A DNA stretch of 40,802 nt, taken from contig DAIOTT010000001.1 of the NCBI GenBank assembly GCA_036751885.1, positions 1 through 40,802 of the forward strand, given 5' to 3'. Made by a program: the position numbers and the translations under genes. Every line of letters starts with the position of its first letter. Position 1 is the first letter of the stretch. Origin of the DNA: Candidatus Sumerlaeota bacterium. Lineage in GTDB: Bacteria > Sumerlaeota > Sumerlaeia > SLMS01 > JAHLLQ01. Below the pieces are notes generated by a model, which had not been told where the DNA came from, made no database searches, and worked only from the letters and a program-made list of their open reading frames with translations. Positions 1-20,257 of this stretch are shown here, piece by piece.

Positions 1-795
1 GCCGGCGATGTAAACGGCGACGGATTAGCGGACTTATTGGTAGGTGCTTCAAGCGCCAACCCAAGCTTAATTCAAAATGCGGGCATTAGTTACGTTGTAT
101 ACGGTAAAACTAATAGCTCCTCTGTGGACTTAGGAAACTTGGGTGAAGGCGGCTTTCAAATTGATGGAAAGGCAGTGAACAACCTCAGCGGGAACAGTGT
201 TTCAGGCGCCGGTGATGTAAATGGCGATGGGTTGGCTGATGTGATTGTGGGCGCACCAAATGCCGCAGCAAACGGGATTGAAAACTCCGGTGAAAGCTAC
301 GTCATTTTCAGCACGGCAACGCCGCCCATTATTGTAACGTACCGAGCCCGGGCCAAAGCCGGCAACGCCCCACGCCAAGCAATCGGCATCTCCGGCGACG
401 GCAGCAATGACTCCACCCCTGACTCACGGGTGTTTATTGACTTCGCTGATGGCAGCAATATTTCCACCCAAACAGTGAAATTGACCCGCAACAACGCATC
501 CATAAATAACTTGCCTGATGCGGCAAATGTAATGTGGGAAATCTCGACAGACCGCATTGATTGGAGCAGTGCTGAAATAACGCTGCGCTACACGGATGCT
601 GAAATTACAGGGCTGAACGAAGCGGAGCTAATGCTGTACACGGCCCCCGACCCAACCGGCCCTTGGGAGCCTGTCACTCAGTTGGTCAAAGAACCTCAAC
701 GCAACCAGCTTAGCGGCACCGTTACTGCCTTTGGCTACTTCGCCCTTAGCACAAGCCAACCAGCACCCAATACCTCGCAATGGATTTTCTACTAA
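1..795 (+). CDS. FG-GAP (integrin-alpha-like) repeat protein, C-terminal part; the 5' end lies outside the window
   Basis: Frame 1 is open from nt 1 (AGDVNGDGLADLLVGASS...), upstream of the track's TTG at 37. There are two copies of the FG-GAP Ca-binding signature GDVNGDGLAD..VGA, each followed by a ..SYVVYG / ..SYVIFS strand. Stop TAA at 793-795. Confidence 0.8.
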   Translation, partial: AGDVNGDGLADLLVGASSANPSLIQNAGISYVVYGKTNSSSVDLGNLGEGGFQIDGKAVNNLSGNSVSGAGDVNGDGLADVIVGAPNAAANGIENSGESYVIFSTATPPIIVTYRARAKAGNAPRQAIGISGDGSNDSTPDSRVFIDFADGSNISTQTVKLTRNNASINNLPDAANVMWEISTDRIDWSSAEITLRYTDAEITGLNEAELMLYTAPDPTGPWEPVTQLVKEPQRNQLSGTVTAFGYFALSTSQPAPNTSQWIFY

Positions 796-850: not shown

Positions 851-3800
851 TTACTTCCAATCGCCGGAAAGGTTTATGCCGGCCCAGTATGTGGGGTGAG
901 GGTATTGGTTTTTCGTGGTGAGTTGCGCTTGGCGCAGAGCTTCCGCGCGGTCCATGGTTTCCATATTACGGTAGAAGTGCTTGATCAGGATGGAGGTTGA
1001 TACATCGTCCACCCGCCAAAGGCTGGAGAGCACTTGCCGCGTTCCTGCGTAAACAAAGCTGCGGTTCAGGCCAATAATTTCATCGCCAGAGGTAATTCGC
1101 CCTAGGCCCGTTTGGCAGGCAGAGAGGGCAACCATATCGGCATTCATGCTTAGGCCAAATATATCTGCCGCCGTAAGTACACCATTGTTCAACTCATCGG
1201 GGGCAAGTTGCAACCCAGAGAGGAGTGGCGCCTCGGGCCGGAACTCGCCGTGCATGGCAAGGTGTATGATTCCGTAGTTGCTGATGTTTTCAACCAACCA
1301 ACTTTTTGTTGCCGCTTCACCCGTGAGAACGGTGGCATCAGGAAACGACCACGTGATTCGTTGGGCTTCCTTCTCTGCCATGGGTAGATTGAACCCATCC
1401 TGCGCCAGCTTGGGATTGCCAATTGCAAGAACCTGATTACTGGTGGTGCGCTTTTTCTCCATGGTATAGCGAAGTACACTTGCGCTTGGGCTAAAGTAAA
1501 TGGCCAAAGAATCCAACAGTAGTGATTCGTTTACGCGAAGCACAGCGAAAGGCATTAGGTGCAGTTCGCGGTGGGGAATGATTGCAAGACGTTTGAAGGG
1601 GGACAGGCTACCCGCTACCGGTTGTAAAAGCTGGCTGGAGAGTGTGCGTTGCAATAGGTTTATATCACCCGCCGTTTGCAGGCGTTCGCGCAAGTTCAGG
1701 ATTTGCGTGCTGAGCGTGGAGCGTGCAATTGGCTGGCGGTAAGCTTGTATGCTTTGTTGCGACACAAGGAAGATGATCAGCTCATTTTCCGTGACATGGT
1801 ACTGCAGCACGGCGGTATCAGAATCAAGAAGGGCTTGAATTTGGGAAACTTGAATGGGCTCCACCGAGACGAACGCGCTTAGCTCTGGATTGCGTGCCCT
1901 AAGGGCTAACAGAAAATCGGCGTACTCCTGCCGCGTGTCGTCAAGTTGCTCGGCAATGCGTTGCTCCAACGTGGGATCATCACCACCCTGCTGGCGTTGA
2001 AGGATTTCAATTCGTGACCGAAGGTTTTCCTCACGCCGTAAATCATCTTCATCAGCACCCTCTAATAAATCCACCTTTTGGTTTCCAAGCAAATCAATAA
2101 AGTTTCTCCCTCGGGATTGTTCGCTCACGGAGTACGCCGCTGGCCAATCTCCTTGATCCATACGCAAAAGCACAAGCTCATCATACAGTACTTGCTTATC
2201 AGCTAAAAAGCCCTCTTGAAATTCTGCAAGCTTAAGGGACGCCCTAAGCGTATCAACAACGTTGATGGCTTGCAGCAAATATTCAATCTGCGATGGAACA
2301 TTCCCCAACGCCTTTTCGCATTGTGACAACCCGTACTGCGCTTGCCAAATTACTTCCGGCAGGGGGACTAAGTTGGCTTGGTTTAGGGCAAAGCCAAACT
2401 GTTGCTGGGCTTCGGCAATATTGTTTTGTTCAACTAAAACACGGCCCAAGGCTAAGTGAACTTTTGCTTGGTTAACCGCATCACCAATACTTTGCGTAAG
2501 AACAAGGGCCTGCCTAAAATCTTGGGCCGCAAGGGACAGGTCACCGGCTTCAAGGTACGTAAGCCCCCGGTTGCGCAAGTTGTAGGCTAAAGCCCAATCG
2601 TTATTCCAGCGGGCATCAATTTCAAAGGCGCGGTTAATATCTTCCAACGCTTGGGTGAAATCTTGATCGCTTCGGTAAACGAGGCTTCGGTTATTCAGGG
2701 TTGAGGCAAGATCTTGCTCAAAGAATTGGTCCTCAGCAAACTCTAAGGCTTGGGTATAAGCTTCAAGTGCTTTATCAAGATCGTTCAGCGCCCAGTAAAT
2801 AAGCCCCTCATAGTTTAATGCAATTAGCTGAAATGTATCGTCGCCAATGCGTTGGGCAAGTTGCTGACCTTGTTCTTGATGGTTGAACGCTTTAAGGTAT
2901 TGGCCCTTTGTCCACTCTAAATAACAGAGTGTTAGCAATGCATCGCACTCGTTTGAAAGAAGGCCTTCGGCGCGGGCTTGTTCCAGTACAGATGCAGCGC
3001 TGTCGCTGGCTTCGGAAATCATGCCAAGGCGTTCCTTCACGCGAACAACATCAAGTGCTGAAAGAAGCTCTAGCTCGCGGTTGCCTAAAACTTGGGCAAG
3101 CCGTTGTGCCTCCTGGTACTCAGTAAGCGCTTGGGCGTAGCGGTTTAGGCGGCGGAGATAAATACGGCCCCTGTCACTGTGGAGTTGATAACGTAGGTCG
3201 CTGGAGATCGACTCGGATTCCAGCAACTCGGCCATAATCCCGAGCGCTTGGTTGACTTGCCCTTGGTTTTCACGCACAATCGCCGCCCGCCGCAACATGT
3301 TGAACGCTTCATCAGAGTCACCAAAGCTGCTGAACAATTCAATTGCCTGTTGGTAGCTGGTCGCCGCTTTTTCCCAGGCGCGAACCTCGTTCGCATCCGA
3401 GGCGTAAAGCCGTAGTTGTGTTGCGCGTTCCAAGGTATTATCTTCCCCCTGAAGCGAAAGCAGCAGTTCCTCGTGAATTGGGAGTGCATCCTTTGCTTGG
3501 CCAAGCTCCCGGTAGATTTGCGCAAGCAAACGACCCGATTCCAACTGTTCATTGAGGGTGCTATTTAGGGCGCGGTGTAGTAAATAAACTCGGCGTAATG
3601 GGCCCAATGCTTCACGAGTTTGTCCCTGATTCATTAGGCGAATCACGCGAGCAAGTTCAGCATCAAGCTCCGAGGCGGCAAGCTCCGGTGCATCTTGCGG
3701 ATTAACCAAGTTGGTAAGCCAAACGGAATCGGGTGTTTCAAAGCGTGCCGTGTTGGCCGTTGCAAGCAATGCGGCAAAGGGACGCGGGTTCCCTGTAACG

Positions 3801-6800
3801 TTTGCATAAGTCCACTCGCGAGGCCCCTGTAACAGCGTCAATTGTGTTTCCAAGGGTTTTTCTGCTAAGCGCCAAAACGTGGCATTTTGCGCTTCCACAT
3901 TTAGGGGTGCATCCACCTGAACAGCATCTGCCGTTGAAAGCGTTTGCAGTAATTGCTGACGCGTGGAATCGTTGCGCCACTCAGCAACTTCATTTGAAAT
4001 GCGCAACGGAGTTTGGCTAAGCGCCAACAACGTAAGGCTTAGGGACGGGGATTCCAGTACATGTTCAATGGGCAATTTCTCCCTCGGATTTAACCTGAAA
4101 TCAGAGTGGTAAACAAGCTCCGCCTTAGGGAGTGAATCCAGCAGCTGTTGCTGTGAAGCGTACACTTTTGGCTCACCCGAAGCATCGAATAAAACAAGGG
4201 TGCTGGGAAGGGAAATGATGAGAAGGGGACGCGAGTTTGAAAGAATGAAATCCTGAAGGGTTGCGGCTGCATCGCCGAAAAACTGGAAGGGCGCAAAGCG
4301 AAGCGCCGTCGGGAAAGCAGAGTTAACCCCTTCCTCAAGGTGGTTTGCCAAAAGCTCCTTAGAGCGCTGTAGGCGTTGGTCTCTTGCCGGAGTAAAGGCA
4401 GAGTCTGCCGGTCGAGATTGCAAGGCTAACCGGGCCTGAAGCACTTGGCGTTTGTATTGGTTGAAGTCGTTCAACCACTCTTGCTCCTGCGGGCTGGTGC
4501 TTTGGTTTTGCCAATCCAAGGTTGAGAATTGCAGTCGGTATTCCGCGTGGCGCAGAATTTCACCGGTGCGCAACAGTTCATCAAAATCCCCTACGGCCGC
4601 ACAGTACTCCATGTAACTGGCAAGAGAAGCTTGCAAAAGGGGAATTGCAGAGAGAAATGCAACTGAATTGCTGGTAGCGTGCGTTGCACCAAGCTGATCA
4701 ACCAAGAGCTTTTGCAGATTGCGAACGTTGCCTGCCTCGGCAGTTGAGGTAATCTGCTGAAGCGTTAACCACCACAGCCAATCATCATACCCTTGCTTGG
4801 TAAAGAAGTCCGTTGATTCAGCCACAACTTCCTCTTGTTGAAAGTTAAACCGATTTGCAATACGCACATTAATGCCGTAGGCAAAAAGCATCCATTGTTT
4901 ATCCTGGGCGGATGAACCCAGTTGGGAGCCAAGCTCCAACACGCGGTTTGCGTGAATGAAAGCGCGTGCGGCGTGGGCAGCAGCGCTCACGGAATCAGCG
5001 CTGTTGGATTGTCGTTCAGCAATCAGGGCCCGCTGCAACAACAGGGACAGGCGCTCGGTTTTCAACTCACCCGAAGCAAGTGCCAGCGTAAAGGAGGGTG
5101 CATCCATGAATCGTTGAATCACCTGATCTAGTTGAACAATAAACGGCGTTTGCTGTTTTGGTTGTTCGCTGAGATTGAAGGGCAATTCTTGTAATTGCGC
5201 ATCAGTTAACGATAAACTTACCTCAGCCACACGCATTAGGAAATGGTATGTAGGATCCAGCAAAATTACCGTACCAACTTCAGATGTGTAGTTGGCATTT
5301 TGAAAACCCTCCACTAAATATTCAAGCGCCTTGATCTTATTTCCCGATCGGTGCTCAATCGTTGCAAGCTCATCTAATGTTTGCATCAGCGCCAAAGAAT
5401 CCTGCGGGGCGCTAACAACACGAGTAGAATTCAATAGGTTGAGTTGATCTTGAAGCGAAGTGCGGGCTTCTTCAGGGGATTCAAATTCTGCTTTCAAACG
5501 AGATAAGATGAGCGTAACAAAACGCTTTTCGTCTTCCTTTGATAGATTCACACGCGCGGTTGATTGATCGCTGGATGACAGCTGTAGCGAAACGGAGAAA
5601 AAGCCTCCGCTTTCCTCCTTCGGAATAACCAATGATTCCTGATTCAGTAAATCCAACGCCTGTTGAAGAACCGTAATCGACTTGCCGGCAATTTGGTAAC
5701 GCTGCACGGTTTTCATTCCTCGGGCTAATTGGAACAAGGCAAACCCCTGATTGCGCAGCGCCCTTGCTTGACCCAATGAGTTTGGGTCTGATGCTTCTGC
5801 AACCCCCTGGAACAGCGTGCTTGCCTTCTCAAAGTTCTGGCGAGACAACTCGGCCAACGCTTGCCGATCAATTAATTCTTGATGCAATGTTTCCGCTTGA
5901 GCTTCATGGATAAAACCTCGTTTCGCCATGATGCTGACTTGCTCGGCCGCAGCGACAAATTGTGTGATTGCCAGCTGTTGTTCGTAAGAACGATAAGCAG
6001 TGACACCGTAGTTGCGGTGAAAGAGAAAAGCAGCTCGGGGGTCGTCAAACGGAAGCCCAAGAATGCTGCGCTCGTTGTAGAATTCAAAAGCCCGGGCCGT
6101 GTTGTCTAAAGCGAATGCCATGTTGCCTGCATTTTGCAACAAACGGGCATAATCCAGCGGGCGTTGCACGGAAGAAAGACCAAGTGCCCGCTGATAATTA
6201 TTCAGGGCTAATACAAATTCCTGAACATCCTTATTTTCTCTTCCCCTTGTTTCATTTATAAACCCGAGTGTTTGATAGTAATAAGGAACAGAACTGTTTG
6301 CAGCAATTGCCTGCTCAATTAGGCGTTTTGTTTTTTTAGATGTTGGCTTCGGATAACTTAAAGCCAACCCGTAGCGATAGGAACCCAACCCTTCATCATC
6401 AGAATTCTTTGCCATGTCACTGTACTCGCGAATGCGCTCGCTGGTAAGTAAGCCAAGGCGATTTTCAGATTCAATTAAACCCCGCCATGCTTCCACAGAA
6501 GTGGGAAGCGATTCAGTCATTGCCACAAACTGGCTGTACGCCAAGCGGTTGTCCCCAAGCCGGAGTGAACGATTTGCGCGGCTCAACGCTTGACGCGAAT
6601 ATTTTTCCTTAGTTCGTTCGTACGCATCGCGTTCTTGCTCCCATTCTTCTAAAGGAATAACCCTCAGAATTTTTTGGTACCGTTCCAACGCCTGTTCAAG
6701 CTCATTGATTCCGCTTTCAATTTCCCCCGCCGCAAGCTGAAGTTGAATTTGGTAATCAAGATCAAGTTCAGGATTTACCTGCACAGATTCCAAGAGTTCA

Positions 6801-8407
6801 TTCGTTGAAGTAATGCGCCCTAATGAAGCAAGAATTTTTGCTTCACGGTAGTAGGAATGAAGAAGATAATACTCCCCCGTGTGAAGGCTTCTGTATTGGC
6901 GGATTGCCGCAAGTTTGGCATCAACAATTGTGGTGTTTTGCCCAACTGAATCGTAGAGCTGTTCCATCAATCGGAATCGCGTAATTGGCAGGTAAGCTTG
7001 ATCTAGATTTACAAGTTCTTCAAATTGGCGAATCCCTTGTTGTTGATCAATCTCAATCAGAAGTGGTATAGAATCCAGCAGCACAATGCTACGCAAAAGC
7101 GAAGGCTGCTCAAGCGTAGAAAGCAACTCTTGCTGAAGCTGAATAGAGGCTTGCCGTTGATTCAACCGCAACAAAACAAGGGCTTTCTCGCGCTGCAAAA
7201 GTTTCACTTCAGTTTGATTATTTAGGTTTGTTGCAAAACTCAAAAATTGGTTCAGTTCATTTAATGAATTTTGTAGAATCGTTGTGCGTTCAATTTCATC
7301 AGCAATACCAACTGCTCGTTCTGCATTTAGAACAGCAGCCCAGCGGTTTAGCGTTCTGCTAAAATCTTCATCAATTGTTGTGTTGATGAGTTGTTTGTAT
7401 CGCTGAAGTTCCTCCAACGCTTGGGCTGATCGGTTGCGCTGACGAAGAAACTCCAGCAAAGAAACAATCGCTGTTTTTGATTCCTCCGAATTTGGCGCTG
7501 CAATGCAGGCGTTGCGTACTTGAGCGGTAAATAGGTACAATTCATTTAGGTTTGGTTCGCGGTTTACAGTTAGCTTGGCAAGTGAAGCTGACAAACTTTT
7601 CTCAGTGACAGGGAAGCTTTTTTTCAGTCGATAAATATCTCGGTTTTCTTCTATTTCAAGGGAGAACACAATTTCATCTGCAGCGTAAGAAACATCCCTC
7701 AAGCCAGGCAACGGGGGAGTAATTTGCCGAATCAAAACGCCGTCTTCCTGTTCCCACAAAGAGGGCCAATCGCCACTACGCTCGCTGATTAGTCCGTCCC
7801 CATTTGTATCATCAAGGTAGAGTATTTGGTAACGCATTGGAAACTCCACCGCCGTTGTATTTCTCGGCAAGTTTAGCATTTCCGTTAGATTGTATTTTTC
7901 AATCGTTTCCTGTGATTCTTGATCCCTGGACTTTATTTGAATTTCAAGTTGATCGTTATTTTTTTTCCAGCTGTAAAGCTCCTCGGTAAATATACGCTTA
8001 CCAAGATTTTTGGGTTCACCATTTGGAAATTTAGCAGCCCAAATATCACTCATAATATCAGACCGTTGCGAAGACCACACAAGGGCATTTCCATCCGGTG
8101 AAAAAGCAGGGGAAGAATCAATTGTAGGGTGCGGATAAAGAAGCGAACGTGTAAATCGCTGAGGATCGTTTAAATCAAGCAGCACTAAATCGCCTTGACC
8201 AGAAGCCTCTGTAACAAAAACAAGCCAACGCCCATCAGGGGAAAGAACAGGGCTGTAATCATCTTCAGGAACCGTGGTAATTCGCTCCAGATTACTAGGG
8301 TACATATTCTCCTGTGCAAACGTTTTTTGAGCAAACGAAGCGACAAACGGAAACGTTGAACAGAGGATTGCAAAAGGGAAACTGGGGCGTTTCATTTTGT
8401 ACTCCAT
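851..8407 (-). CDS. Giant exported multidomain protein: signal peptide, TolB-like PD40 beta-propeller repeats, a very long TPR-like helical-repeat region, and a C-terminal CHAT (caspase-like) protease domain
   Basis: 2,518-aa uninterrupted ORF. The N-terminus MKRPSFPFAILCSTFPFVASFAQ is signal-peptide-like. An alternative ATG at 8395 gives an ATGA overlap with the upstream stop. PD40 motifs: SPVLSPDGRWLVFV and SPAFSPDGNALVWSS. A DTNGDGLI Ca-loop-like motif is present. Many TPR-like units occur (e.g. ALNNYQRALGL, AYTQALEFAE, ALEDINRAFEID). The CHAT core is RLAIIPHRELHLMPFAVL ... IIHLAMHGEF ... VALSACQTG, with the His codon at 1250-1252 and the Cys codon at 1115-1117. Confidence 0.85.
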   Translation of the reverse strand: MEYKMKRPSFPFAILCSTFPFVASFAQKTFAQENMYPSNLERITTVPEDDYSPVLSPDGRWLVFVTEASGQGDLVLLDLNDPQRFTRSLLYPHPTIDSSPAFSPDGNALVWSSQRSDIMSDIWAAKFPNGEPKNLGKRIFTEELYSWKKNNDQLEIQIKSRDQESQETIEKYNLTEMLNLPRNTTAVEFPMRYQILYLDDTNGDGLISERSGDWPSLWEQEDGVLIRQITPPLPGLRDVSYAADEIVFSLEIEENRDIYRLKKSFPVTEKSLSASLAKLTVNREPNLNELYLFTAQVRNACIAAPNSEESKTAIVSLLEFLRQRNRSAQALEELQRYKQLINTTIDEDFSRTLNRWAAVLNAERAVGIADEIERTTILQNSLNELNQFLSFATNLNNQTEVKLLQREKALVLLRLNQRQASIQLQQELLSTLEQPSLLRSIVLLDSIPLLIEIDQQQGIRQFEELVNLDQAYLPITRFRLMEQLYDSVGQNTTIVDAKLAAIRQYRSLHTGEYYLLHSYYREAKILASLGRITSTNELLESVQVNPELDLDYQIQLQLAAGEIESGINELEQALERYQKILRVIPLEEWEQERDAYERTKEKYSRQALSRANRSLRLGDNRLAYSQFVAMTESLPTSVEAWRGLIESENRLGLLTSERIREYSDMAKNSDDEGLGSYRYGLALSYPKPTSKKTKRLIEQAIAANSSVPYYYQTLGFINETRGRENKDVQEFVLALNNYQRALGLSSVQRPLDYARLLQNAGNMAFALDNTARAFEFYNERSILGLPFDDPRAAFLFHRNYGVTAYRSYEQQLAITQFVAAAEQVSIMAKRGFIHEAQAETLHQELIDRQALAELSRQNFEKASTLFQGVAEASDPNSLGQARALRNQGFALFQLARGMKTVQRYQIAGKSITVLQQALDLLNQESLVIPKEESGGFFSVSLQLSSSDQSTARVNLSKEDEKRFVTLILSRLKAEFESPEEARTSLQDQLNLLNSTRVVSAPQDSLALMQTLDELATIEHRSGNKIKALEYLVEGFQNANYTSEVGTVILLDPTYHFLMRVAEVSLSLTDAQLQELPFNLSEQPKQQTPFIVQLDQVIQRFMDAPSFTLALASGELKTERLSLLLQRALIAERQSNSADSVSAAAHAARAFIHANRVLELGSQLGSSAQDKQWMLFAYGINVRIANRFNFQQEEVVAESTDFFTKQGYDDWLWWLTLQQITSTAEAGNVRNLQKLLVDQLGATHATSNSVAFLSAIPLLQASLASYMEYCAAVGDFDELLRTGEILRHAEYRLQFSTLDWQNQSTSPQEQEWLNDFNQYKRQVLQARLALQSRPADSAFTPARDQRLQRSKELLANHLEEGVNSAFPTALRFAPFQFFGDAAATLQDFILSNSRPLLIISLPSTLVLFDASGEPKVYASQQQLLDSLPKAELVYHSDFRLNPREKLPIEHVLESPSLSLTLLALSQTPLRISNEVAEWRNDSTRQQLLQTLSTADAVQVDAPLNVEAQNATFWRLAEKPLETQLTLLQGPREWTYANVTGNPRPFAALLATANTARFETPDSVWLTNLVNPQDAPELAASELDAELARVIRLMNQGQTREALGPLRRVYLLHRALNSTLNEQLESGRLLAQIYRELGQAKDALPIHEELLLSLQGEDNTLERATQLRLYASDANEVRAWEKAATSYQQAIELFSSFGDSDEAFNMLRRAAIVRENQGQVNQALGIMAELLESESISSDLRYQLHSDRGRIYLRRLNRYAQALTEYQEAQRLAQVLGNRELELLSALDVVRVKERLGMISEASDSAASVLEQARAEGLLSNECDALLTLCYLEWTKGQYLKAFNHQEQGQQLAQRIGDDTFQLIALNYEGLIYWALNDLDKALEAYTQALEFAEDQFFEQDLASTLNNRSLVYRSDQDFTQALEDINRAFEIDARWNNDWALAYNLRNRGLTYLEAGDLSLAAQDFRQALVLTQSIGDAVNQAKVHLALGRVLVEQNNIAEAQQQFGFALNQANLVPLPEVIWQAQYGLSQCEKALGNVPSQIEYLLQAINVVDTLRASLKLAEFQEGFLADKQVLYDELVLLRMDQGDWPAAYSVSEQSRGRNFIDLLGNQKVDLLEGADEDDLRREENLRSRIEILQRQQGGDDPTLEQRIAEQLDDTRQEYADFLLALRARNPELSAFVSVEPIQVSQIQALLDSDTAVLQYHVTENELIIFLVSQQSIQAYRQPIARSTLSTQILNLRERLQTAGDINLLQRTLSSQLLQPVAGSLSPFKRLAIIPHRELHLMPFAVLRVNESLLLDSLAIYFSPSASVLRYTMEKKRTTSNQVLAIGNPKLAQDGFNLPMAEKEAQRITWSFPDATVLTGEAATKSWLVENISNYGIIHLAMHGEFRPEAPLLSGLQLAPDELNNGVLTAADIFGLSMNADMVALSACQTGLGRITSGDEIIGLNRSFVYAGTRQVLSSLWRVDDVSTSILIKHFYRNMETMDRAEALRQAQLTTKNQYPHPTYWAGINLSGDWK

Positions 8408-8955
8408 GCGCCGTTACGCGCTTGAATGAAAGAACCTATGGGGGCAGCATCTTGATTGATTGTGGCAAACACCCATTGAATTTCGTCCTCCTGATTTTCT
8501 TGCTGGGTGAAAATAGTTTGCTTCAAGCGATTCAACAAAACGGCTCGGTCGTTATTTTCTTCGTCAATTATTTGCTGCACTTGTTCTTGAGTAAGATTTG
8601 TTTGCGAAAGATTTTGCTCACGTTGAACCACCAATCCATTGGCCGCTTCACCCAAAACATTTGTTCGCAAAAGAGCATTTAAATCGTCGGAGTTGTAGCG
8701 GCGATTCTGCAGAGCTGCAAACACTTGTTGTTGGCTTTCCGTAGTTTCTGGTGGCAGTGTAAGGGATCCATCCGGATCAACTCCACGAACACTGCTGTAA
8801 GAGAGAAGCTCCTTCCCTAGTTCCGAGTAATTCCCCAACACTTGATTTTCAAGTGAAGTTTGCTCGCCAATAACCTTAATATTAAGATTCAACAACGGCC
8901 CGCACCCTTGAAGTACGAGGGAAAATACCAAAATAGTGTAAAGAAATTTATTCAT
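8392..8955 (-). CDS. DUF1318 / YdbL-like periplasmic protein with a lipoprotein-type signal peptide; the N-terminal part may be YnbE-like
   Basis: I prefer the ATG at 8955 (MNKFLYTILVFSLVLQGC, signal peptide plus Cys) over the track's upstream start at 9045, which would overlap the preceding gene by about 100 nt. The C-terminal half (EENNDRAVLLNRLKQ ... GSFIQARNGAWSTK) resembles my recollection of E. coli YdbL (..INAERKASYQQLAK ... GEYVQGINGKWVRK). Its start overlaps the upstream stop (ATGAATAA) and its stop overlaps the downstream start (ATGA). Confidence 0.6.
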   Translation of the reverse strand: MNKFLYTILVFSLVLQGCGPLLNLNIKVIGEQTSLENQVLGNYSELGKELLSYSSVRGVDPDGSLTLPPETTESQQQVFAALQNRRYNSDDLNALLRTNVLGEAANGLVVQREQNLSQTNLTQEQVQQIIDEENNDRAVLLNRLKQTIFTQQENQEDEIQWVFATINQDAAPIGSFIQARNGAWSTK

Positions 8956-11900
8956 TTTCAAGAGCTGCCTTTGCATTAAAGAGTGAGAAAAGTTCATCCA
9001 ACGTTTTTGCCTGAAGCACATCCTGCGCAAGAATGAGTTGAGCATAAAGCGTATTGATCATATCAGGGGAATACAGAACGGCAATTTCAGAGATCGGCTG
9101 ATTTTGCACAACGTAAAACGGAGTAGTAAAACCCCCGCGAACCGTTACATCCGTTCTAAAAGTTACAAGCCCGTAGGAGATTAAAAAAGATGCAGCCGTT
9201 GGAGGAGTGACACGCAAAAGCGTTAACGCGTTTGAAACCGTTTTTAACTCCAGCGCGGTTGTTACAGCTACAATGAGTTTGCGAATGGAATCGGCTTCCA
9301 AATCATACGTAAAGAGTTCTGCATCTAGTTGTTCCACCGGATTTGTTGCATTACGCTTTAACGGCAAACTGTACTTCCCTAATAAATTTATTGTCTCATT
9401 ATTTTCTTTATCTGGATTATTGTAGGCATTTAAATTAAGTCCCACAAGTTGCACATTACCAGACAACGTATTTCTAATAGAGCTTGGGTACAGCGAAGTG
9501 GTAAGGGACAATGAGCCTTGAAGCACATCCGATATAATCAGGGAAAGATCAATTCCCTCTGTAACACCGTTAGCAAGAAAGATTAATTTAGAAAGAACGA
9601 CCGGGCGCGCGGTTGACTCCACCGTTAACTGTTCGATTGTAAACTTGCCCAATGCTTTTGGAGGTTGAAGAGCAAGGGGCTTTGAAATGCCTAAGGCATA
9701 TTCCGGGCTCCAGCTGCCGTTCAGTCCGCGCATGTTGACTAAATCTGGCATGCGCAAATTAACCTCGGAAGCAGTCAACGTTGGGTTTATATATATTCCC
9801 GATGATTCTGAGGTGCGAAATACCACATCAACAGCTGCATCACCCGTCATGGTATAATCTTCCAACTCGTCCTCCAACGCCGCTAAACGCTGAAAGAATG
9901 AAGCCGTTCCCTGCAGTTGTAAATCGTTTATAAAATCGTTCAGGCTGAAGGAATTCATCAGCGTCGTGAAATCTGCATCATCTTGAATTGGAAGAATTGC
10001 AGATCCGGAAGAGGCGAAGGTGCTGCCAATATTTTCAATGGAAAAGTCCGAAAGTTCCCACGCAATTTCGCCGTTGGGCTTCACCGTGCTTGAAGAGAGT
10101 AAGTTGATATTTTCCAAAGGAAATAAATCGGGAATCGTGATCGAATCAATGGTAGAATTTACATCAACTGTCAGCACATCTTCCGAAAGCGATTGGCGAA
10201 AATTAATTCCTGTTTCACTAATGTTCATTCCGTTATAGGCAATATTCGGAAGCGATGCTTGCAGATTTATCCGTGCTTGTTGTGCTTGAAAAAAACTGCT
10301 CAAGGTGGTGGGCAGCACGCCAGCATATTCGCTTTCAAGGGAAAAACTACCCCCTGTGAATTCAACCAAAAAAGGCTGAAGCGGCGCATTTAAAAATTCT
10401 AATGAACTTGATTTTGCGATGAGGGACAGAGACAATAAGTCCCCATAAATAAGATCATTTACCTGCAGAAGAAACTCACTGCCAACCTTTAGCTCCGCTT
10501 GTTCAAGAGTAACACTTTCAGCAAAAATCAACTCTTGCAATTCCAAAGAGGCGGAATTCACGAGGCCCGTTTCGGTTTCCAAATTCTGAACGGAACCAAC
10601 TTGAAGAAGTGTTTGTATCAGTTCACCTTGTTGAATGCTTGAAAGATTTGCCGACAACGAAACATCGAAAATGCCGAAAGTGTTATAATAGATTTCCGGC
10701 ATACTGATACGCAAAGCCCCCAAAGTTGCGGGTACTGCTTCACTTGAATTAAAGAAATACTCCAAGCCTAAATCAGCCCCCAGAACATTCGCTAAATATT
10801 CTTCAGAGCTTAAATCTGGTAGTTCAAGGCTTACATTCCCTCCTCCGCTGGCTGAATACGAGTCAGCCAAATTAAGAGTGAACGTATTCTGAGATTGCAA
10901 AAATGATTCCGGTGAAACGCTAAGCCGTTCCGGGTACAATTGTTCTGGTGCAAATTCTGTTGCTAAGCTCAACGCACTTGCAACGCTCACCAACAAATCA
11001 AAGGACGATTGAGCTTCTTGAACGGTTGATAGATTAAGGGAGCTTGCAAAAAGTAGGTCGTTGTATAATTCAACCGCGGCAGTTATTTTGGGATCAACCG
11101 GATCTGCAACTCCCTGTAAGGTTGCATTTAGTTGAACGGGGTAGAGGACGGAATTATGCTGCGAGCTGGGCAGTAGTGTATGATTGAGGGACGCGAACGA
11201 TTGGTAGGTAGATAAATTCGTTGTGGCGAATAATTCTCCTTCAAACGAAGCTGGAAGATGCTGTTCAAAATCCATTAAATTTTCAGGGATTATAACAAAT
11301 TCCTTCAGCAACCCAAAGCCCTTAAGGGCAAGATCAACATCCTGATCTTCAGCATTTAAATTCACGGATAAAAACGAATGATTGCTCCTAATATCCAAGA
11401 AAACTTTATGGGCATTTATGGTGTTGGTTTGAAATGAAAATTCCACATTTCCCCGAGGGACATTCACGAACGGGTTTTGCAAATCAATCACCGGGAGGCT
11501 TAAGCGCCCGCGGGCGTTCGCGTGATTTTGGGCGTAATCGAATTCAACATATAGATTCGTCCACTCTTCAAGGCAAACTGGCAAAGCAAAAAACTCATCC
11601 TCAATTAGCTTGGCGGTTTTCTGGGTATTTAACTTACCAATTAAACTCCCGTAGATGGTGGGCCCTAAAGCTGAACCATTCACCTGCGGAAGGCTAACTT
11701 CAAAGTAAGGATGCAAAAGTTGAAAATCCTGCACACCATAAGTTTGTTCTGCCATAAAATAGCGTGCAGTGGCAGATTGCTCAACTGCCAGCAACTCCGC
11801 GGGTAGAGAGAATGAATCGTACACAATCCGCTGATCCGCAAACGTGGATTCCGGCGCGGGAGTAATTGAAAAGTCTTGATTGAATTCAAGTACTCCGTCC

Positions 11901-13204
11901 CTGAAAACAATTTGATTGAGGGAAAACTTTACTTCACTTTCGGGAATTAAAACAAGCGGCAGTGGAACCAGCTTTTGCGCAAAGTTTAGTAATTCCAACG
12001 GCTGAAGCGTTATGCTGGTTTGGGCGTTATCAAGGGCAATTTGTGGCTGGGTTGCAAGTTCTTCAGCGGTTGCTTGTAACGTTGCCCAAGGGCTTTGAAA
12101 CTTGAGTTCGCCCGCAACCATTGCTTGTTTTTGCACATTCACTTCTGCGCGGCTGTTGAAGTTCATCGCCGGCAGCAAAACGGATTTATCTGGGGCATTT
12201 GGTACCAAGCGTGTGGAAAACTCAACGCCCTCAACAGCAGCACTAAGCTCAGCAAGCACAACAACAGAATCAAGTTGCTGTACTGAAAGGCTTACGGGTA
12301 TATTCCCCGATTCAATAATTAAGTAGTCCTGTGCTACAAAGGGAGCTGCTAAGGTTTGTAAAATTGGAAGCTCAAAATTTGTGGTCAACTTTGCATTCCG
12401 TTTTTCTGCATCAGCTGCTAAGTGAAAAAATGAAGTGGTGTTTTCCGTTCGGGAAACGTTGAACTCCGCAACTATTTTTTCGACAACCAATTCGCGCTCT
12501 TTGTTCAAGGCTTTGTTGATGTTCCCTGATGCAACCCAAGGGAATTCCTGATCGTTTGCTTGAATACTCCCTACCGCCGCCAGTGTAAGTGCATCCGCTG
12601 GTGTAGTAAGATTCAAATCAACGGAATCTAATACAAAGGCAAGCCGCTGGTTTTTCACACGATCATCATAAACAAATTCCCAATCAACGGCCTTAACACT
12701 GAAAGAATTTACGGGGAGTTTGAACGCCTCCGTTGAGGTTGTGGGCTCGTCATTCGTGCTACTTGGGGGGAGTGAATTGATTAGCGCCTGAAGATTTGTT
12801 TCGCCGTTTTCCAGAATGGTGTAATTCGCTTGAAGCCCAACAACCTCAAGAGGCGGTGGGTTTTGAATACCATTTTGAAAAAACCCGATTATACTAATCG
12901 GGGCTGATGCAGAATCCAAGGCGAGAATTTGCTCGCCCGTAGCATTGTCTTTTACCAACAGCCCCTCAATTGCAAGGGTGGAAAACCACCCCAGTTTAAG
13001 GCGCTGCAATTCAATCGTCAGAGGAAATTGTTTTTCGGCAAAACCAATTCCACGGCTTACAACAAACCGCGACGTTATGATGCTTGGCAAAATGGCGATG
13101 AACAGAATGAGCCCCAAAAGAATACAAAAAAGGCCAAGCAAAAGACGTTTCTTCCACTTAGCCTTGGTAGACTTTTTTTCGGCTATTTCTGGATTTTTTT
13201 CCAT
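8948..13204 (-). CDS. AsmA-family (TamB/YdbH-like) large envelope protein, inner-membrane anchored
   Basis: 1,418-aa ORF with ATG at 13204. Basic N-terminus followed by a single TM (KKRLLLGLFCILLGLILFIAILPSII). Next comes an AsmA-like start (LTIELQRLKLGWFSTLAIEGLLVKD), then more than 1,300 aa of S/T/N/L-rich sequence with alternating beta-strand character and no Cys. It sits immediately upstream of a DUF1318 gene, as ydbH does in E. coli. The family call is by architecture and context, not by a strict motif. Confidence 0.5.
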   Translation of the reverse strand: MEKNPEIAEKKSTKAKWKKRLLLGLFCILLGLILFIAILPSIITSRFVVSRGIGFAEKQFPLTIELQRLKLGWFSTLAIEGLLVKDNATGEQILALDSASAPISIIGFFQNGIQNPPPLEVVGLQANYTILENGETNLQALINSLPPSSTNDEPTTSTEAFKLPVNSFSVKAVDWEFVYDDRVKNQRLAFVLDSVDLNLTTPADALTLAAVGSIQANDQEFPWVASGNINKALNKERELVVEKIVAEFNVSRTENTTSFFHLAADAEKRNAKLTTNFELPILQTLAAPFVAQDYLIIESGNIPVSLSVQQLDSVVVLAELSAAVEGVEFSTRLVPNAPDKSVLLPAMNFNSRAEVNVQKQAMVAGELKFQSPWATLQATAEELATQPQIALDNAQTSITLQPLELLNFAQKLVPLPLVLIPESEVKFSLNQIVFRDGVLEFNQDFSITPAPESTFADQRIVYDSFSLPAELLAVEQSATARYFMAEQTYGVQDFQLLHPYFEVSLPQVNGSALGPTIYGSLIGKLNTQKTAKLIEDEFFALPVCLEEWTNLYVEFDYAQNHANARGRLSLPVIDLQNPFVNVPRGNVEFSFQTNTINAHKVFLDIRSNHSFLSVNLNAEDQDVDLALKGFGLLKEFVIIPENLMDFEQHLPASFEGELFATTNLSTYQSFASLNHTLLPSSQHNSVLYPVQLNATLQGVADPVDPKITAAVELYNDLLFASSLNLSTVQEAQSSFDLLVSVASALSLATEFAPEQLYPERLSVSPESFLQSQNTFTLNLADSYSASGGGNVSLELPDLSSEEYLANVLGADLGLEYFFNSSEAVPATLGALRISMPEIYYNTFGIFDVSLSANLSSIQQGELIQTLLQVGSVQNLETETGLVNSASLELQELIFAESVTLEQAELKVGSEFLLQVNDLIYGDLLSLSLIAKSSSLEFLNAPLQPFLVEFTGGSFSLESEYAGVLPTTLSSFFQAQQARINLQASLPNIAYNGMNISETGINFRQSLSEDVLTVDVNSTIDSITIPDLFPLENINLLSSSTVKPNGEIAWELSDFSIENIGSTFASSGSAILPIQDDADFTTLMNSFSLNDFINDLQLQGTASFFQRLAALEDELEDYTMTGDAAVDVVFRTSESSGIYINPTLTASEVNLRMPDLVNMRGLNGSWSPEYALGISKPLALQPPKALGKFTIEQLTVESTARPVVLSKLIFLANGVTEGIDLSLIISDVLQGSLSLTTSLYPSSIRNTLSGNVQLVGLNLNAYNNPDKENNETINLLGKYSLPLKRNATNPVEQLDAELFTYDLEADSIRKLIVAVTTALELKTVSNALTLLRVTPPTAASFLISYGLVTFRTDVTVRGGFTTPFYVVQNQPISEIAVLYSPDMINTLYAQLILAQDVLQAKTLDELFSLFNAKAALENE

Positions 13205-13231
13205 CGGCCTTCTGAAGGATTACAAATATTG

Positions 13232-14158
13232 TTAGGGACTCAAACGATTGAGCACATTGGCTTGGTAGCGTGCTTGTTGTTGTACTCCTACACCGACAAA
13301 ATCCTTAAGATCAGTTGCATAAAGAGGTTGCAAATTTCTGATTCGACTTGATGCAGAAGGGTGCGTTGAAAGTAACCCGCCTTGCTGATTAGGAAGGCTG
13401 GCAAGCGTATTCAAAAACCGCAAGTACTCAGCAGGATCGTACCCCGTAAGCGCCGCTAATTGAACACCAACGGAATCAGCCTCGTACTCAAATTTTTGAT
13501 CCAACCCTTTGTTGAACAAAACATCGCTGCCAAAATCTACATCCTGGCTGTACTCCTCAGCGCTTAATGCTTCCAAAGTTTGGTTTGCTGCTTCAAACAA
13601 CCGCGCGCGTTTGTACGTTTGAATCATGTGGCGCTCCGTTACGTGGGCAACTTCGTGCCCAAGCACGGCGGCAAGTTCCGCTTCATTGCTGATTCGCTTC
13701 AGGGCTCCGGTCGTAATAAATAGAAATCCGCCAGGGGCAGCAAACGCGTTGATTGTTTCAGAATCTAGAACGGCAACGGAGAACTGCAAATCCGGACGGC
13801 TGCTTTGTAGCACCACGCTACGAGCAACTAAGTTTACGTAACGTTGTACGGTTTCATCCTGCAGGCGCGGGCCGATTGTTGCGTAAGAGCGCAACGCTAA
13901 GCCTTCACCCAACGTGTATTCCATTTCAGGGGAAACATCGCTTGCTAGGCTTGAAACGGACCCCGCAACATTCCCGTATTGCTTTGCTTTTTCTTCGTCG
14001 CCACTGCCAAGAAGAACGCCCGTTTGTACGATTGTGCCAAGATCAGCGGAGGAAATTCCTGATCCGCCGTTTCCGCCGCAGCTTGCCCCTAAGAACACCA
14101 CGGTTGAAAAAACGGTAAGCACGCCAAGTTGTTGAATTTTACGCATAGAACGATTCAT
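13232..14158 (-). CDS. M48-family zinc metallopeptidase, secreted or lipoprotein
   Basis: Motif NAFAAPGGFLFITTGALKRISNEAELAAVLGHEVAHVTERH contains the HExxH zinc site in typical M48 context. N-terminal signal MRKIQQLGVLTVFSTVVFLGASC. The start ATG shares nt 14158 with the upstream stop (TAATG). Confidence 0.85.
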   Translation of the reverse strand: MNRSMRKIQQLGVLTVFSTVVFLGASCGGNGGSGISSADLGTIVQTGVLLGSGDEEKAKQYGNVAGSVSSLASDVSPEMEYTLGEGLALRSYATIGPRLQDETVQRYVNLVARSVVLQSSRPDLQFSVAVLDSETINAFAAPGGFLFITTGALKRISNEAELAAVLGHEVAHVTERHMIQTYKRARLFEAANQTLEALSAEEYSQDVDFGSDVLFNKGLDQKFEYEADSVGVQLAALTGYDPAEYLRFLNTLASLPNQQGGLLSTHPSASSRIRNLQPLYATDLKDFVGVGVQQQARYQANVLNRLSP

Positions 14159-14637
14159 TACAAACCACCTTCAGCCATAAAGCTTTGAACGTCAGCCGCA
14201 ACAATTTCGTTGGCCAATTCTTGAGTTTTACTGAGGTCTTTCGCCGCCGATTCGGGGATTTCACCGGAATCAATAAGGGTTTGAGCCTGAGGCGCAACAC
14301 CGCGATTCACGGATTGGCTTCTCATGGTAGTGATTTGCCGATCGTCTCGCACTAAACCACCAAGCCCGCCGCTAGAACTTCTTATCGGTGCATCTTGAAC
14401 TTTTACTTTGCTGATGAACCCTTGGGCACCATTGCTTGTGCGCACTTGGTAGAACAACCCTTGTTGTTGAAGCACTGTTAACGGGGTGTTTTGCGGAACC
14501 GTGGCAACAACGGAACCGCCAGAGCCTTGCCGCGAACGTAATTCAGCCTCGGCCGTTTTAACGTAGATAGTTTGCTGTGCCCAGCTTATAGCGGGCAAAA
14601 GTAAAGCAAATAGGGGAATTAAGATGCGTTGTTTCAT
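14158..14637 (-). CDS. Secreted bacterial SH3 (SH3b) domain protein
   Basis: I prefer the ATG at 14637 (MKQRILIPLFALLLPAISWAQQ, a clean signal peptide, with AGGA 11 nt upstream) over the track's TTG at 14673. SH3b-like core: IYVKTAEAELRSRQGSGGSVVATVPQNTPLTVLQQQGLFYQVRTSNGAQGFISKVKV. Confidence 0.65.
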   Translation of the reverse strand: MKQRILIPLFALLLPAISWAQQTIYVKTAEAELRSRQGSGGSVVATVPQNTPLTVLQQQGLFYQVRTSNGAQGFISKVKVQDAPIRSSSGGLGGLVRDDRQITTMRSQSVNRGVAPQAQTLIDSGEIPESAAKDLSKTQELANEIVAADVQSFMAEGGL

Positions 14638-14683
14638 TGTATGTAAATTCCTATTAGAAGAACGATTTAGCAAGTTTGATGAT

Positions 14684-15847
14684 TCAACCGGATGATTTGT
14701 TCCAAGCTTTAAAGATTACACCAGCAATATGACCGCCAAAACCAAAAGACCACTTCAGTATGTGTACAAGGGGTTGGGGTTGTGTCAAACAAGGAAACCG
14801 AAGGTGAGAACATTCCGGCGCGGCCGTAATAAGACCTACGGTTAGTGGTATTTCTTGTCGGTTCAGCATTGAAATCACGGAAACGCTTTCAACGCTGCCG
14901 GCTGCACCCATCAAGTGCCCGGTTGCCCCTTTCAGCGAATGACAATACAGGGAATGCTGATTCCATTTGTTTTGCAAAGATTTAATGGCTGCCGCCTCTG
15001 CGCAATCATTCGCCGGTGTTGCTGTTCCGTGGCAGCTGATTGCCTGAATCAACGGCTTACCGGCTCGCTGCCAAGCCTTCTCGCCCACCGTTGCAATTAC
15101 CTCACCGCTAAGATCAATCCCCACAGGGTGGTAGGCATCCGCTCCCTCTGCCCAGGAAACAATTTCTGCCACAGGCGTTAGCCCAGCTTTCTCGGCGTTT
15201 TCAGGGGTTGTAAGAACTAAAACTGCGGCCCCTTCCCCTGCAACAAACCCGTTATGCCGAACATCAAAGGGGAAAGAACCCTGTTGCGAGTAAGCATTTA
15301 AGTTCAGAAACGAGGCAATATAGGCAGAATGCAATGTTGCCTCGCTGGAACCAGCAACCGCGTAGGCGCATTCACCAGCTTGCACTGAACGTGCGGCCCG
15401 AATGATATTTGCAAGCCCTGTGGCACAAGCCCCAACATAACTCCCCACGGGCCCCTGGGCATTTGTTTCCTGGGCTAAGAAGGTACTAATGGCACAAGCC
15501 CACAGGCTGGGAAAATTTGTGCGTGCTGAACCGGAAATCAACAGCTCCTGAAGAACGCCCCCTTTACTGGTTGCCGCAAAAGCCCCCCGCTCCTGAGGAG
15601 GGATAAAGGCATTCAACGCCTCAAAAACTGAGGCCAGTTCCGCCAAGCAGGGGCGAAGCAGGCTGATTGATCGGTCTTCCCCCGGCACGGTTTGAAAATC
15701 AACCACCCGCGCAACGGGTATACGCTGAAGCCCCTCCATCTGTTCCAAATGAATCCCGCACTTGCCTGCTAGTAATCCCTCTGTGAACAACTCAAATCCC
15801 CTTCCCACCGGGGAAATTACCCCACACCCTGCAATAATAACCCTCAT
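14684..15847 (-). CDS. Beta-ketoacyl-ACP synthase (KAS I/II, FabF/FabB-like)
   Basis: The Cys-His-His triad is in canonical contexts: GACATGLANI (Cys), CHGTATPANDCAE (His), SLKGATGHLMGAAG (His). C-terminal SFGFGGHIAGVIF. ATG at 15847. Confidence 0.85.
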   Translation of the reverse strand: MRVIIAGCGVISPVGRGFELFTEGLLAGKCGIHLEQMEGLQRIPVARVVDFQTVPGEDRSISLLRPCLAELASVFEALNAFIPPQERGAFAATSKGGVLQELLISGSARTNFPSLWACAISTFLAQETNAQGPVGSYVGACATGLANIIRAARSVQAGECAYAVAGSSEATLHSAYIASFLNLNAYSQQGSFPFDVRHNGFVAGEGAAVLVLTTPENAEKAGLTPVAEIVSWAEGADAYHPVGIDLSGEVIATVGEKAWQRAGKPLIQAISCHGTATPANDCAEAAAIKSLQNKWNQHSLYCHSLKGATGHLMGAAGSVESVSVISMLNRQEIPLTVGLITAAPECSHLRFPCLTQPQPLVHILKWSFGFGGHIAGVIFKAWNKSSG

Positions 15848-15975
15848 TTTACTGATTGCTCGATTCTGGTTTTCCTTGCCAATCTAAGCACTCCCCCACG
15901 TAATGTAGGCTTAGAAGCACTTACTAACCCTGTGAATAGTATGTTCAACACCATAACCCCAAAGGGCAACAACTG

Positions 15976-16233: not shown

Positions 16234-16297
16234 TTTTCTGCAATCACTGCTCTTCCTTAGGTGAGTTTTTTTGAGTATCATCCTGATCAGCCGCGAC

Positions 16298-16906: not shown

Positions 16907-16909
16907 AGC

Positions 16910-20205: not shown

Positions 20206-20257
20206 ACACCCCTTCCGCTTGAACCGCCCTCTACCCCACTTTGAAAGTATACCACGC

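Follow-up and report, generated by a model that had tools for sequence, protein, structure and literature searches.

How does a giant, caspase-like exported protease come to be encoded in overlap with a small lipoprotein and an AsmA-like envelope protein, and does such an arrangement mark a functional unit? This question is raised by six consecutive minus-strand genes at positions 851 to 15,847 of a stretch of 40,802 nucleotides (nt) from a Candidatus Sumerlaeota bacterium (contig DAIOTT010000001.1, assembly GCA_036751885.1), the whole of which is referred to here as the window, and which belongs to a metagenome-assembled genome (MAG) of the Sumerlaeia. A first-pass annotation, made from the DNA letters, had described these genes as a translationally coupled, six-gene envelope operon. 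Comparison with related loci leads us to a different delimitation: the locus is best explained as one lineage's version of an envelope module, widespread and uncharacterised, which is very probably a genuine and conserved functional module, and which has five genes rather than six, i.e. a three-gene core (AsmA-like protein, DUF1318 lipoprotein and giant) plus an SH3b-M48 accessory pair. The genes of the cluster, with lengths in amino acids (aa), and the overlaps within its core are as follows.

14684–15847, minus strand: KAS II-like beta-ketoacyl-ACP synthase (KAS), 387 aa, the first gene on its strand
14158–14637 from the ATG, or to 14673 from a TTG, minus strand: SH3b protein, 159 aa from the ATG
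13232–14158, minus strand: M48 zinc metalloprotease, 308 aa
8948–13204, minus strand: AsmA-like large protein, 1418 aa
8948–8955, minus strand: 8-nt overlap, ATGAATAA, between the TAA of the AsmA-like gene and the ATG of the DUF1318 gene (read from the sequence)
8392–8955, minus strand: DUF1318 lipoprotein, 187 aa
8392–8395, minus strand: 4-nt overlap, ATGA, between the TGA of the DUF1318 gene and the ATG of the giant gene (read from the sequence)
851–8395 (ATG; alternative ATG at 8407), minus strand: giant PD40-TPR-CHAT protein, 2514 aa
15848–15975, no strand: 128-nt divergent intergenic region 5' of the KAS gene; the next plus-strand open reading frame (ORF) begins at 15976

Gene order, overlaps and their conservation

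Related loci (L numbers) were collected in two samples. The giant-anchored sample consists of the genomic contexts of giant relatives from 11 lineages, and the lipoprotein-anchored sample of 80 loci obtained by a metagenome scan with the lipoprotein alignment, in which all ORFs were called and iterated hidden Markov models built from the window proteins were used. Denominators in the latter sample allow for contig truncation, at least 3 kb being required downstream for the giant and upstream for the AsmA-like gene; as its search patterns were derived from the conserved helix of this DUF1318 subfamily, what the sample establishes is a tie between this subfamily and the giant, and not one for all DUF1318 proteins. 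The giant was present in 35/39 of the lipoprotein-anchored loci, the AsmA-like gene in 36/43, and both together in 26/32, and in the giant-anchored sample the DUF1318 gene lies directly upstream of the giant gene in 8 of the 11 lineages. A word-index search with the 1418-aa protein returned a single homologue, with 28% identity, from another Sumerlaeia MAG (L001), which has the identical order of six genes: KAS, SH3_3, M48, a DUF748 protein of 1422 aa, DUF1318 and the PD40 giant. The expected conservation of gene order was therefore borne out, both in L001 and in the metagenome loci.

Further examples show the same arrangement in distant genomes. Locus L004 contains M48, a DUF748 protein (1502 aa), DUF1318 and giant genes with 4-nt overlaps, L093 and L095 have an AsmA/DUF748 gene followed by DUF1318 and the giant, and in the near-duplicate contigs L005 and L006 the giant gene is overlapped by 4 nt by that of a 175-aa lipoprotein, which has no Pfam match and aligns with the DUF1318 proteins. 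The three-gene core is also present in the cultured delta proteobacterium NaphS2, and a 5.2-Mb Deltaproteobacteria contig carries the core followed by the SH3b-M48 pair. The overlaps are conserved along with the order: the AsmA-like and DUF1318 genes overlap in 26/50 related loci (mostly by 4 nt) and lie within 20 nt of each other in 34/50. As the N-terminal extensions of the giants vary, their starts were placed by signal-peptide-like N-termini, and a start placed in this way overlaps the DUF1318 gene in 39/48 loci (by 4 nt in 15, by 16 nt in 10 and by 19 nt in 10) and is within 30 nt of it in 45/48.

Some loci depart from this arrangement. In L094 and L096 the DUF1318 and giant genes lack an adjacent AsmA-like gene, and in two Nitrospinota loci and in L097 the giant stands alone. 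The two Nitrospinota loci (L003 and L092, including Candidatus Nitronauta litoralis) have no DUF1318 or AsmA-like gene within 10 kb of the giant and share a synteny of their own, consisting of FGE-sulfatase, lipoate ligase, FG-GAP and TerB genes with a proton antiporter subunit gene upstream. Directly after the giant gene of L096 is a gene for an OEP protein, a TolC-like outer-membrane factor (18011–19573), and in L095 two genes encoding proteins without a Pfam match (279 and 492 aa; 6893–9211) are inserted between the AsmA-like and DUF1318 genes.

Within the window the coordinates of the six ORFs and five junctions given by the first-pass annotation were exact, according to ORF calls and to the junctions as read from the sequence. 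There are 46 nt from the TGA of the KAS gene (14684–14686) to the SH3b ATG (14637), the SH3b TAA and the M48 ATG have one base in common at 14158 (TAATG), and 27 nt separate the M48 TAA from the start codon (ATG) of the 1418-aa gene, which has a GAAGG 5–9 nt upstream. Overlapping junctions make up only three of the five, where translational coupling had been proposed for the entire cluster; the overlaps of the AsmA-like, DUF1318 and giant genes recur in most related loci. The geometry alone is little proof of a functional unit, because packing of this kind is nothing exceptional in the genome (the divergent cluster at 16271–21727 has gaps of 3, −4 and −23 nt) and because consensus scans for promoters and terminators did no better than shuffled sequence, with 11 promoter-like sites vs 17.6 expected and 25 terminator-like sites vs 23.3 expected. 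The 128-nt divergent region is likely to be the promoter region of the minus-strand cluster, as judged from its geometry only, and the consensus scan of that region gave no convincing promoter.

It could be argued from such observations that there is no functional unit at all, and that unrelated envelope genes have been packed together by a compact genome, since overlaps are common elsewhere in the window and the promoter and terminator scans are uninformative. Against this, the order and the overlaps are kept at 28% identity and across phyla, and the SH3b-M48 pair is kept on either side of the core with no other family recurring, which makes this explanation very improbable. The overlaps had been put forward as an argument against chance adjacency; packing does not carry that argument, and what is above chance is that distant genomes keep the same order and overlaps, in line with a conserved module.

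The SH3b-M48 pair was found in about 40% of loci, either upstream of the core (the window, L001, L004 and L007) or downstream of the giant in 11 loci (L020, L022, L028, L034, L040, L048, L054, L062, L063, L066 and L091). The SH3b protein of the window matches SH3_3 at 35.4 bits and has an N-terminus, MKQRILIPLFALLLPAISWAQQ, which by eye resembles a signal peptide. Its partner matches Peptidase_M48 at 103.5 bits, contains the HEVAH and EYEAD motifs, and is probably a lipoprotein, as its N-terminus has, by eye, a Cys-containing signal (GASC). It scores 91.8 bits against BepA (cut-off 570), with only the protease half aligned and the TPR half of BepA absent, and 42.7 bits against LoiP (cut-off 365), and as both scores are far under the cut-offs it is neither a BepA nor a LoiP equivalog. 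Clustering of all remaining ORFs in the loci gave no further recurrent partner, the sole family found in 15 loci being a generic response regulator present on both strands.

With regard to the KAS, both halves of the enzyme are recognised (Pfam ketoacyl-synt and Ketoacyl-synt_C) and the Cys-His-His motifs can be seen by eye (ACATG, HGTATPAND and GHLMGAAG), and its score against the FabF equivalog TIGR03150 is 205.8 bits, with a cut-off of 493.75. This KAS is kept beside the cluster only in two Sumerlaeia genomes, that of the window and L001 (53% identity), and L004, L007 and the Desulfobacteria-type loci lack it, so that its membership of the module is doubtful. KAS genes that precede DUF1318 in L010 and L036 were considered as candidates for a sixth member and rejected, as with 25% identity they are generic paralogues. 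The six-gene operon is therefore reduced to a five-gene module, and the co-occurrence expected of all its parts is found for the AsmA-like, DUF1318 and giant core, is partial for SH3b and M48, and fails for the KAS outside the Sumerlaeia.

The AsmA-like protein and the DUF1318 lipoprotein

The system to which these two proteins invite comparison is that of Escherichia coli, in which YdbH is an inner-membrane-anchored beta-groove protein that is completed through strand augmentation by the outer-membrane lipoprotein YnbE, with YdbL restraining YnbE multimerisation (PMC11126948). For binding the C-terminal helix of YnbE, YdbL uses E60, R61 and neighbouring residues, and free YdbL is degraded by DegP (PMC13464000). 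The domains assigned earlier to the proteins of the window were recovered with Pfam and NCBIfam for CHAT, TPR, PD40, DUF1318, M48, SH3_3 and KAS; the exception is the 1418-aa protein, which has no Pfam or NCBIfam match, and none even at E≤10 in a search of the Pfam AsmA clan. As the protein has no profile match of its own, its AsmA-like label was initially a guess. A phmmer and profile search against PDB sequences gave nothing useful, and a scan of genome contigs with a two-sequence alignment of the AsmA-like protein found only the Sumerlaeia contig already known.

The label gains support from the orthologues and from structure prediction. Among 30 aligned orthologues, matches at E≤0.01 were found to DUF748 (18/30), AsmA (13/30) and YhdP (11/30), confined to the N-terminal 100–200 residues and mostly below gathering thresholds; the L049 orthologue passes the AsmA gathering threshold (41.9 bits vs 29.8), and those of L091, L093 and L095 have precomputed, unmarked AsmA or DUF748 matches. 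None of the 30 orthologues matched DctA-YdbH. By eye, the translation of the window protein has a single N-terminal transmembrane segment at residues ~20–43 (LLLGLFCILLGLILFIAILPSII), following a Lys-rich stretch. The codons of this anchor also contain a terminator-like hairpin (13130–13165, minus strand; 16-bp stem and T-run), which is probably there by chance because the region has no more terminator-like sites than shuffled sequence leads one to expect. The AlphaFold2 model of residues 219–1418 (pLDDT 77.7, pTM 0.47) is almost all beta, with ~90 strands and periodic short helices, and its best Foldseek matches are the ApoB100 beta-belt (E 2e-6), LptD and LPD-3/BLTP1, at TM-scores of only 0.09–0.14, as is to be expected of a long flexible rod. 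An exhaustive profile search of 1.84 billion representatives with the C-terminal 1150 aa as query gave 27 proteins at E≤1e-3, all of them aligning to the last ~350 residues only, which therefore are the conserved part of the protein. On the strength of the orthologue matches and of the predicted all-beta fold, the 1418-aa protein is best described as AsmA-like and not as a YdbH orthologue, and would be a putative, inner-membrane-anchored intermembrane lipid bridge.

The DUF1318 protein matches its profile at 31.4 bits (cut-off 27) and consists of a lipobox (LQGC, with the Cys at position 18), a beta-prone segment (residues 19–28), a conserved helix (29–57) and a YdbL (DUF1318) fold (~90–187). 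In 68 aligned homologues the lipobox Cys is kept in 68/68, and after it comes a stretch in which every other residue tends to be Val (consensus TLAKVDVNVV). The next block, T-x-LENQVLGSY ... SVRG (also written T-A-LENQVLGSY ... ASVRG), is likewise invariant in the 68 homologues and is the most conserved part, with an entropy of 1.0 bit for the N-terminal helix vs 1.9 for the YdbL-like part. The AlphaFold2 model (pLDDT 85) has a disordered segment at 19–28, helices at 29–55 and 73–97, and after these two helices with a hairpin on either side, and its sole significant PDB match in Foldseek is the crystal structure of E. coli YdbL (28oj; target TM 0.82, rmsd 2.8 A, probability 1.00). This agrees with hhalign, which aligns residues 95–187 onto mature YdbL, and with N134 and R137, which align with YdbL N58 and R61 and are invariant in the homologues. 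The analogy with YnbE and YdbL drawn in the first-pass annotation does not hold in its simple form, as the 187-aa DUF1318 protein is lipidated and has a conserved N-terminal extension of 70 residues, and there is no room for a separate ynbE because the AsmA-like and DUF1318 genes overlap. The succession of Cys, strand, helix and YdbL fold is, we infer, what a YnbE-YdbL fusion would look like.

A profile search showed the lipoprotein family to comprise 1,043 clusters at 90% identity, with a length of ~195 aa, mainly from Desulfobacteria and Thermodesulfobacteriota. In a subgroup of these lipoproteins (L044, L049, L060, L074, L078 and L082–L084; post-Cys sequence SARPEVQVTLVDTRTALENQ) another gene replaces the giant downstream, and in L049, L060, L074 and L082–L084 this gene belongs to a common family of ~350 aa (for instance 10568–11620 in L049), of which the L049 member has no Pfam match and the L074 member matches ABC_sub_bind. 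L049 also has an AsmA-family gene 1.6 kb upstream.

The giant protein and its possible roles

The giant combines a signal peptide, a TolB-like PD40 propeller, a helical/TPR region of ~1,900 aa and a C-terminal CHAT (caspase-like) protease domain, the positions of its recognisable domains being:

7946–8296, minus strand: PD40/TolB-like propeller repeats, residues ~38–154 counted from the ATG at 8407; PD40 49.6 bits
2249–3379, minus strand: TPR array directly N-terminal to CHAT, residues ~1677–2053; TPR_12 92 bits in three stretches
860–1648, minus strand: CHAT domain (Pfam CHAT) with an intact His-Cys dyad (IIHLAMHGEF ... LSACQTGL)

The CHAT match is the strongest of these (210.3 bits vs a gathering threshold of 24; E 5e-62; 285/289 profile positions covered), and the TPR array is also matched by TPR_1, TPR_MalT and other TPR families. 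About 40 full-length relatives of 2,450–2,860 aa with the identical PD40-TPR-CHAT layout were found, in MAGs of Sumerlaeia, Nitrospinota, Myxococcota, KSB1 and Deltaproteobacteria. With its signal peptide and that of the SH3b protein, the transmembrane segment of the AsmA-like protein, the LQGC lipobox and the GASC signal, every product of the cluster except the KAS looks exported by eye, as had been claimed.

The reading we favour, though tentatively and as somewhat short of probable, is a YdbH/YnbE/YdbL-like intermembrane bridge, the outer-membrane partner of which is coupled to the giant as an exported TPR-CHAT protease/scaffold, with the SH3b and M48 proteins as accessories; the contacts between these proteins, the lipid cargo and the protease substrate are inferred. 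Part of the evidence would also suit a giant that is chiefly non-catalytic and serves as a Tol-Pal-like periplasmic tether, in which PD40 would bind an outer-membrane lipoprotein, the TPR region would span the periplasm, the co-occurring SH3b protein would bind peptidoglycan and CHAT would be self-processing or vestigial, the whole holding contact sites together with the bridge. The PD40 region does resemble the TolB propeller, and the mass of TPR is far beyond the needs of a protease domain; the matches to TolB TIGR02800 (residues 38–116) and PRK01029 (52–154) are, however, all far below equivalog cut-offs. The dyad columns hold His in 38/42 and Cys in 38/42 homologues across phyla, with near-invariant flanks, which argues for selection on catalysis, although one lineage (L094, 9410–18502, protein P0042) has lost the dyad (His to Gln, Cys to Leu) and still has its DUF1318 gene 12 nt upstream. 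On balance a mainly structural giant seems distinctly unlikely. In L091 (10570–19217) the giant is split into two overlapping genes, for a 383-aa PD40 protein and a 2499-aa TPR-CHAT protein, which is either a frameshift or genuine and suggests that the propeller is able to act as a separate subunit.

CHAT proteases are also known from defence and signalling, for instance in Csx29/craspase and in DdvA, which has a periplasmic TPR-CHAT domain (PMC11506125), and since the giant has MalT-like TPR matches it could be a sensor or effector of envelope stress or phage of the same kind, with the linkage to the AsmA-like and YdbL-like proteins reflecting its target or trigger. The searches give little encouragement to such a role, which we regard as still less likely than that of a tether: PADLOC, run on all six window proteins, reported no defence family and only a generic TPR model, the Csx29 model NF041237 scored 40.8 bits with a cut-off of 300, and the giant begins with a cleavable signal peptide and PD40, without the transmembrane or anti-sigma domain of a DdvA-type protein. 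There are no cas or other CRISPR genes, no sigma factor gene (including an adjacent one of the extracytoplasmic function, ECF, type) and no mobile-element genes nearby; the other genes of the window are housekeeping genes (recA, secG, aroB and one for a UvrD-like helicase), and the neighbourhood, being kept stably from phylum to phylum, is not that of an island.

The N-termini of the giants bear on another explanation, in which the AsmA-like protein and the lipoprotein would serve as a pathway of their own for carrying the giant to, or assembling it at, the outer membrane or the surface, the groove shielding lipoprotein acyl chains and not bulk phospholipid. A precedent is the AsmA-like beta-taco protein GspN, which is needed for the surface delivery of lipoproteins in Acinetobacter's type II secretion system (T2SS) (PMC12802150). 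Many giant homologues have lipobox-like signals where others have signal peptides (9/41, and many of the Desulfobacteria-type loci), the DUF1318 protein is always lipidated, and the overlapping genes would be in the order transporter, partner and cargo. The window giant itself has, by eye, a signal of the signal-peptidase-I type and no lipobox, several lineages have the giant without an adjacent AsmA-like gene, and the Pfam search found no beta-barrel, autotransporter or known sorting motif, so that delivery of the giant is unlikely, if less so than the two preceding alternatives.

Among the neighbouring genes, one for an FG-GAP repeat protein is found no more than a few kb from the giant in each of four unrelated loci (window 37–795, plus strand; L003 4085–5344; L092 3903–5198; L097 264–1388), and that of the window is convergent with the giant gene, 55 nt from its stop. 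The divergent plus-strand cluster at 16271–21727 encodes proteins of 211 and 779 aa without a Pfam match, a polysaccharide deacetylase and an S13 DD-carboxypeptidase, and looks like another envelope or peptidoglycan operon using the common divergent region at 15848–15975, with an 85-aa ORF (15976–16233) between that region and the 211-aa gene. Elsewhere in the window, the product of the minus-strand gene at 24301–25374 is unusual in that a thioredoxin-like domain is fused to CBM48/AMPK1 glycogen-binding modules.

Proposed mechanism and comparison with known systems

If the cluster does encode a bridge with a coupled protease, the AsmA-like protein would be a rod of the repeating beta-groove type, about the size of TamB/YhdP, anchored in the inner membrane and spanning the periplasm. 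The lipoprotein would combine the roles of YnbE and YdbL, having an amphipathic beta-prone segment, a helix and a YdbL fold that keeps the helix-binding residues, and may cap or complete the rod at the conserved ~350 residues of its C-terminus, in the way that YdbH is completed by YnbE. The giant, synthesised together with the lipoprotein, would bind it through its PD40 and/or TPR parts and then act as scaffold and protease that licenses, limits or dismantles the bridge, while the M48 protease might add quality control and the SH3b protein might bind peptidoglycan. Parallels in E. coli would be the removal of free YdbL by DegP and the action of BepA on stalled outer-membrane assembly. A bolder version, which we think as unlikely as the tether, makes the giant a dedicated proteolytic switch and the lipoprotein an auto-capped YnbE/YdbL fusion: cleavage by CHAT, possibly at the invariant SVRG block that separates the conserved helix from the YdbL fold, would free or destroy the cap and thereby open or close lipid flow between the membranes. 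Such a layer of control would be missing in E. coli, and common among Thermodesulfobacteriota, Sumerlaeota and further phyla.

Several observations weigh against a YdbH-like bridge controlled by the giant. The large protein of the window has no Pfam match of any kind, hhalign of its 30-sequence family against E. coli YdbH gave a probability of 0.4%, with nothing detectable, and there was no TamB or YdbH structure among the top 50 Foldseek matches listed, the TM-scores of which were low. For the lipoprotein, the hhalign alignment with E. coli YnbE does not extend beyond the signal peptide and lipobox, the likeness of the VDVNV strand to INMNV of YnbE is by eye only, and the statistics for helix conservation are inflated, that same helix having supplied the patterns for the locus search. 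The Nitrospinota giants without a DUF1318 or AsmA-like gene nearby, and the other loci with DUF1318 and giant but no adjacent AsmA-like gene, mean that the three core parts are separable, and the L094 lineage, in which adjacency outlasts the dyad, means that catalysis is not always needed; it is this separability and the dyad-less lineage which keep the cargo, tether and sensor/defence alternatives alive.

The first-pass annotation knew of no described system coupling these parts, and this was upheld by full-text literature searches, which found no paper pairing CHAT with AsmA-like or DUF1318 proteins, and nothing relevant for AsmA-like together with DUF1318 proteins. Work on the phospholipid route to the outer membrane, and on the assembly and regulation of AsmA-like bridges, has so far been confined almost entirely to E. 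coli and Pseudomonas. The module suggests that in many non-model diderms such a bridge goes together with just one YdbL-like partner, which is lipidated, and a recurrent SH3b-M48 pair, and also with one of the largest exported proteins of the genome, the caspase-like protease domain of which is intact. It offers concrete candidates, open to testing, both for regulators of the bridge and for what periplasmic CHAT proteases, themselves almost unstudied, might cleave, and may show how AsmA-type bridges are controlled, with NaphS2 as a cultured entry point and the more than 1,000 lipoprotein clusters at 90% identity as ample material for covariation analysis and complex prediction.

Compared with known systems, the parts of the module have relatives on several sides. 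The size class of the large protein (1,200–1,500 aa), its N-terminal transmembrane anchor, the N-terminal matches of its orthologues and its predicted all-beta rod are those of the TamB/YhdP/DUF748 proteins, but the neighbouring genes include none for a TamA-like or other barrel partner, and the profile matches cover the N-terminal 100–200 residues only. The giant shares with separase, Csx29/craspase and DdvA (PMC11506125) a TPR array directly before a CHAT domain with a His-Cys dyad, and the DdvA precedent means that a TPR-CHAT module can work in the periplasm. It differs from these known TPR-CHAT proteases in its size, which is two to three times theirs, in the PD40 propeller at its N-terminus and some 1,300 additional helical residues, and in having a YdbL-like lipoprotein and an AsmA-like protein as constant neighbours; unlike DdvA it is exported by a signal peptide and is not a transmembrane anti-sigma factor, and unlike craspase it is not CRISPR-associated. 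The M48 protein has the catalytic motifs and envelope location of BepA and LoiP, and its lipoprotein-like signal resembles that of LoiP, whereas it lacks the TPR domain of BepA and is always paired with the SH3b protein. GspN (PMC12802150) is likewise an AsmA-like protein genetically tied to lipoprotein partners, although this is a relation of idea only, as GspN is far smaller and no T2SS genes are found near the window cluster.

The YdbH-YnbE-YdbL system of E. coli (PMC11126948, PMC13464000) likewise has the gene of an inner-membrane-anchored AsmA-like protein followed, within one operon of overlapping genes, by a DUF1318 gene, and a lipoprotein partner; it is a system whose YdbL residues N58 and R61 align with positions invariant here, and which provides a precedent for proteolysis of the small partner (DegP acting on YdbL). 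The large protein of the window is 1418 aa long, as against 879 aa for YdbH, and has no detectable similarity to it, and where YdbL is a small, soluble periplasmic protein of ~90 mature residues, the DUF1318 protein is lipidated, 187 aa long and has the conserved 70-residue extension. The coupled PD40-TPR-CHAT giant, the SH3b protein and the M48 protease are all without counterpart at the E. coli ydb locus, which in turn has the separate ynbE gene that is missing here. As neither YdbH homology, nor a separate YnbE, nor a soluble YdbL was found, the locus is placed outside that particular system, within the class that combines an AsmA bridge with a YdbL-like partner.

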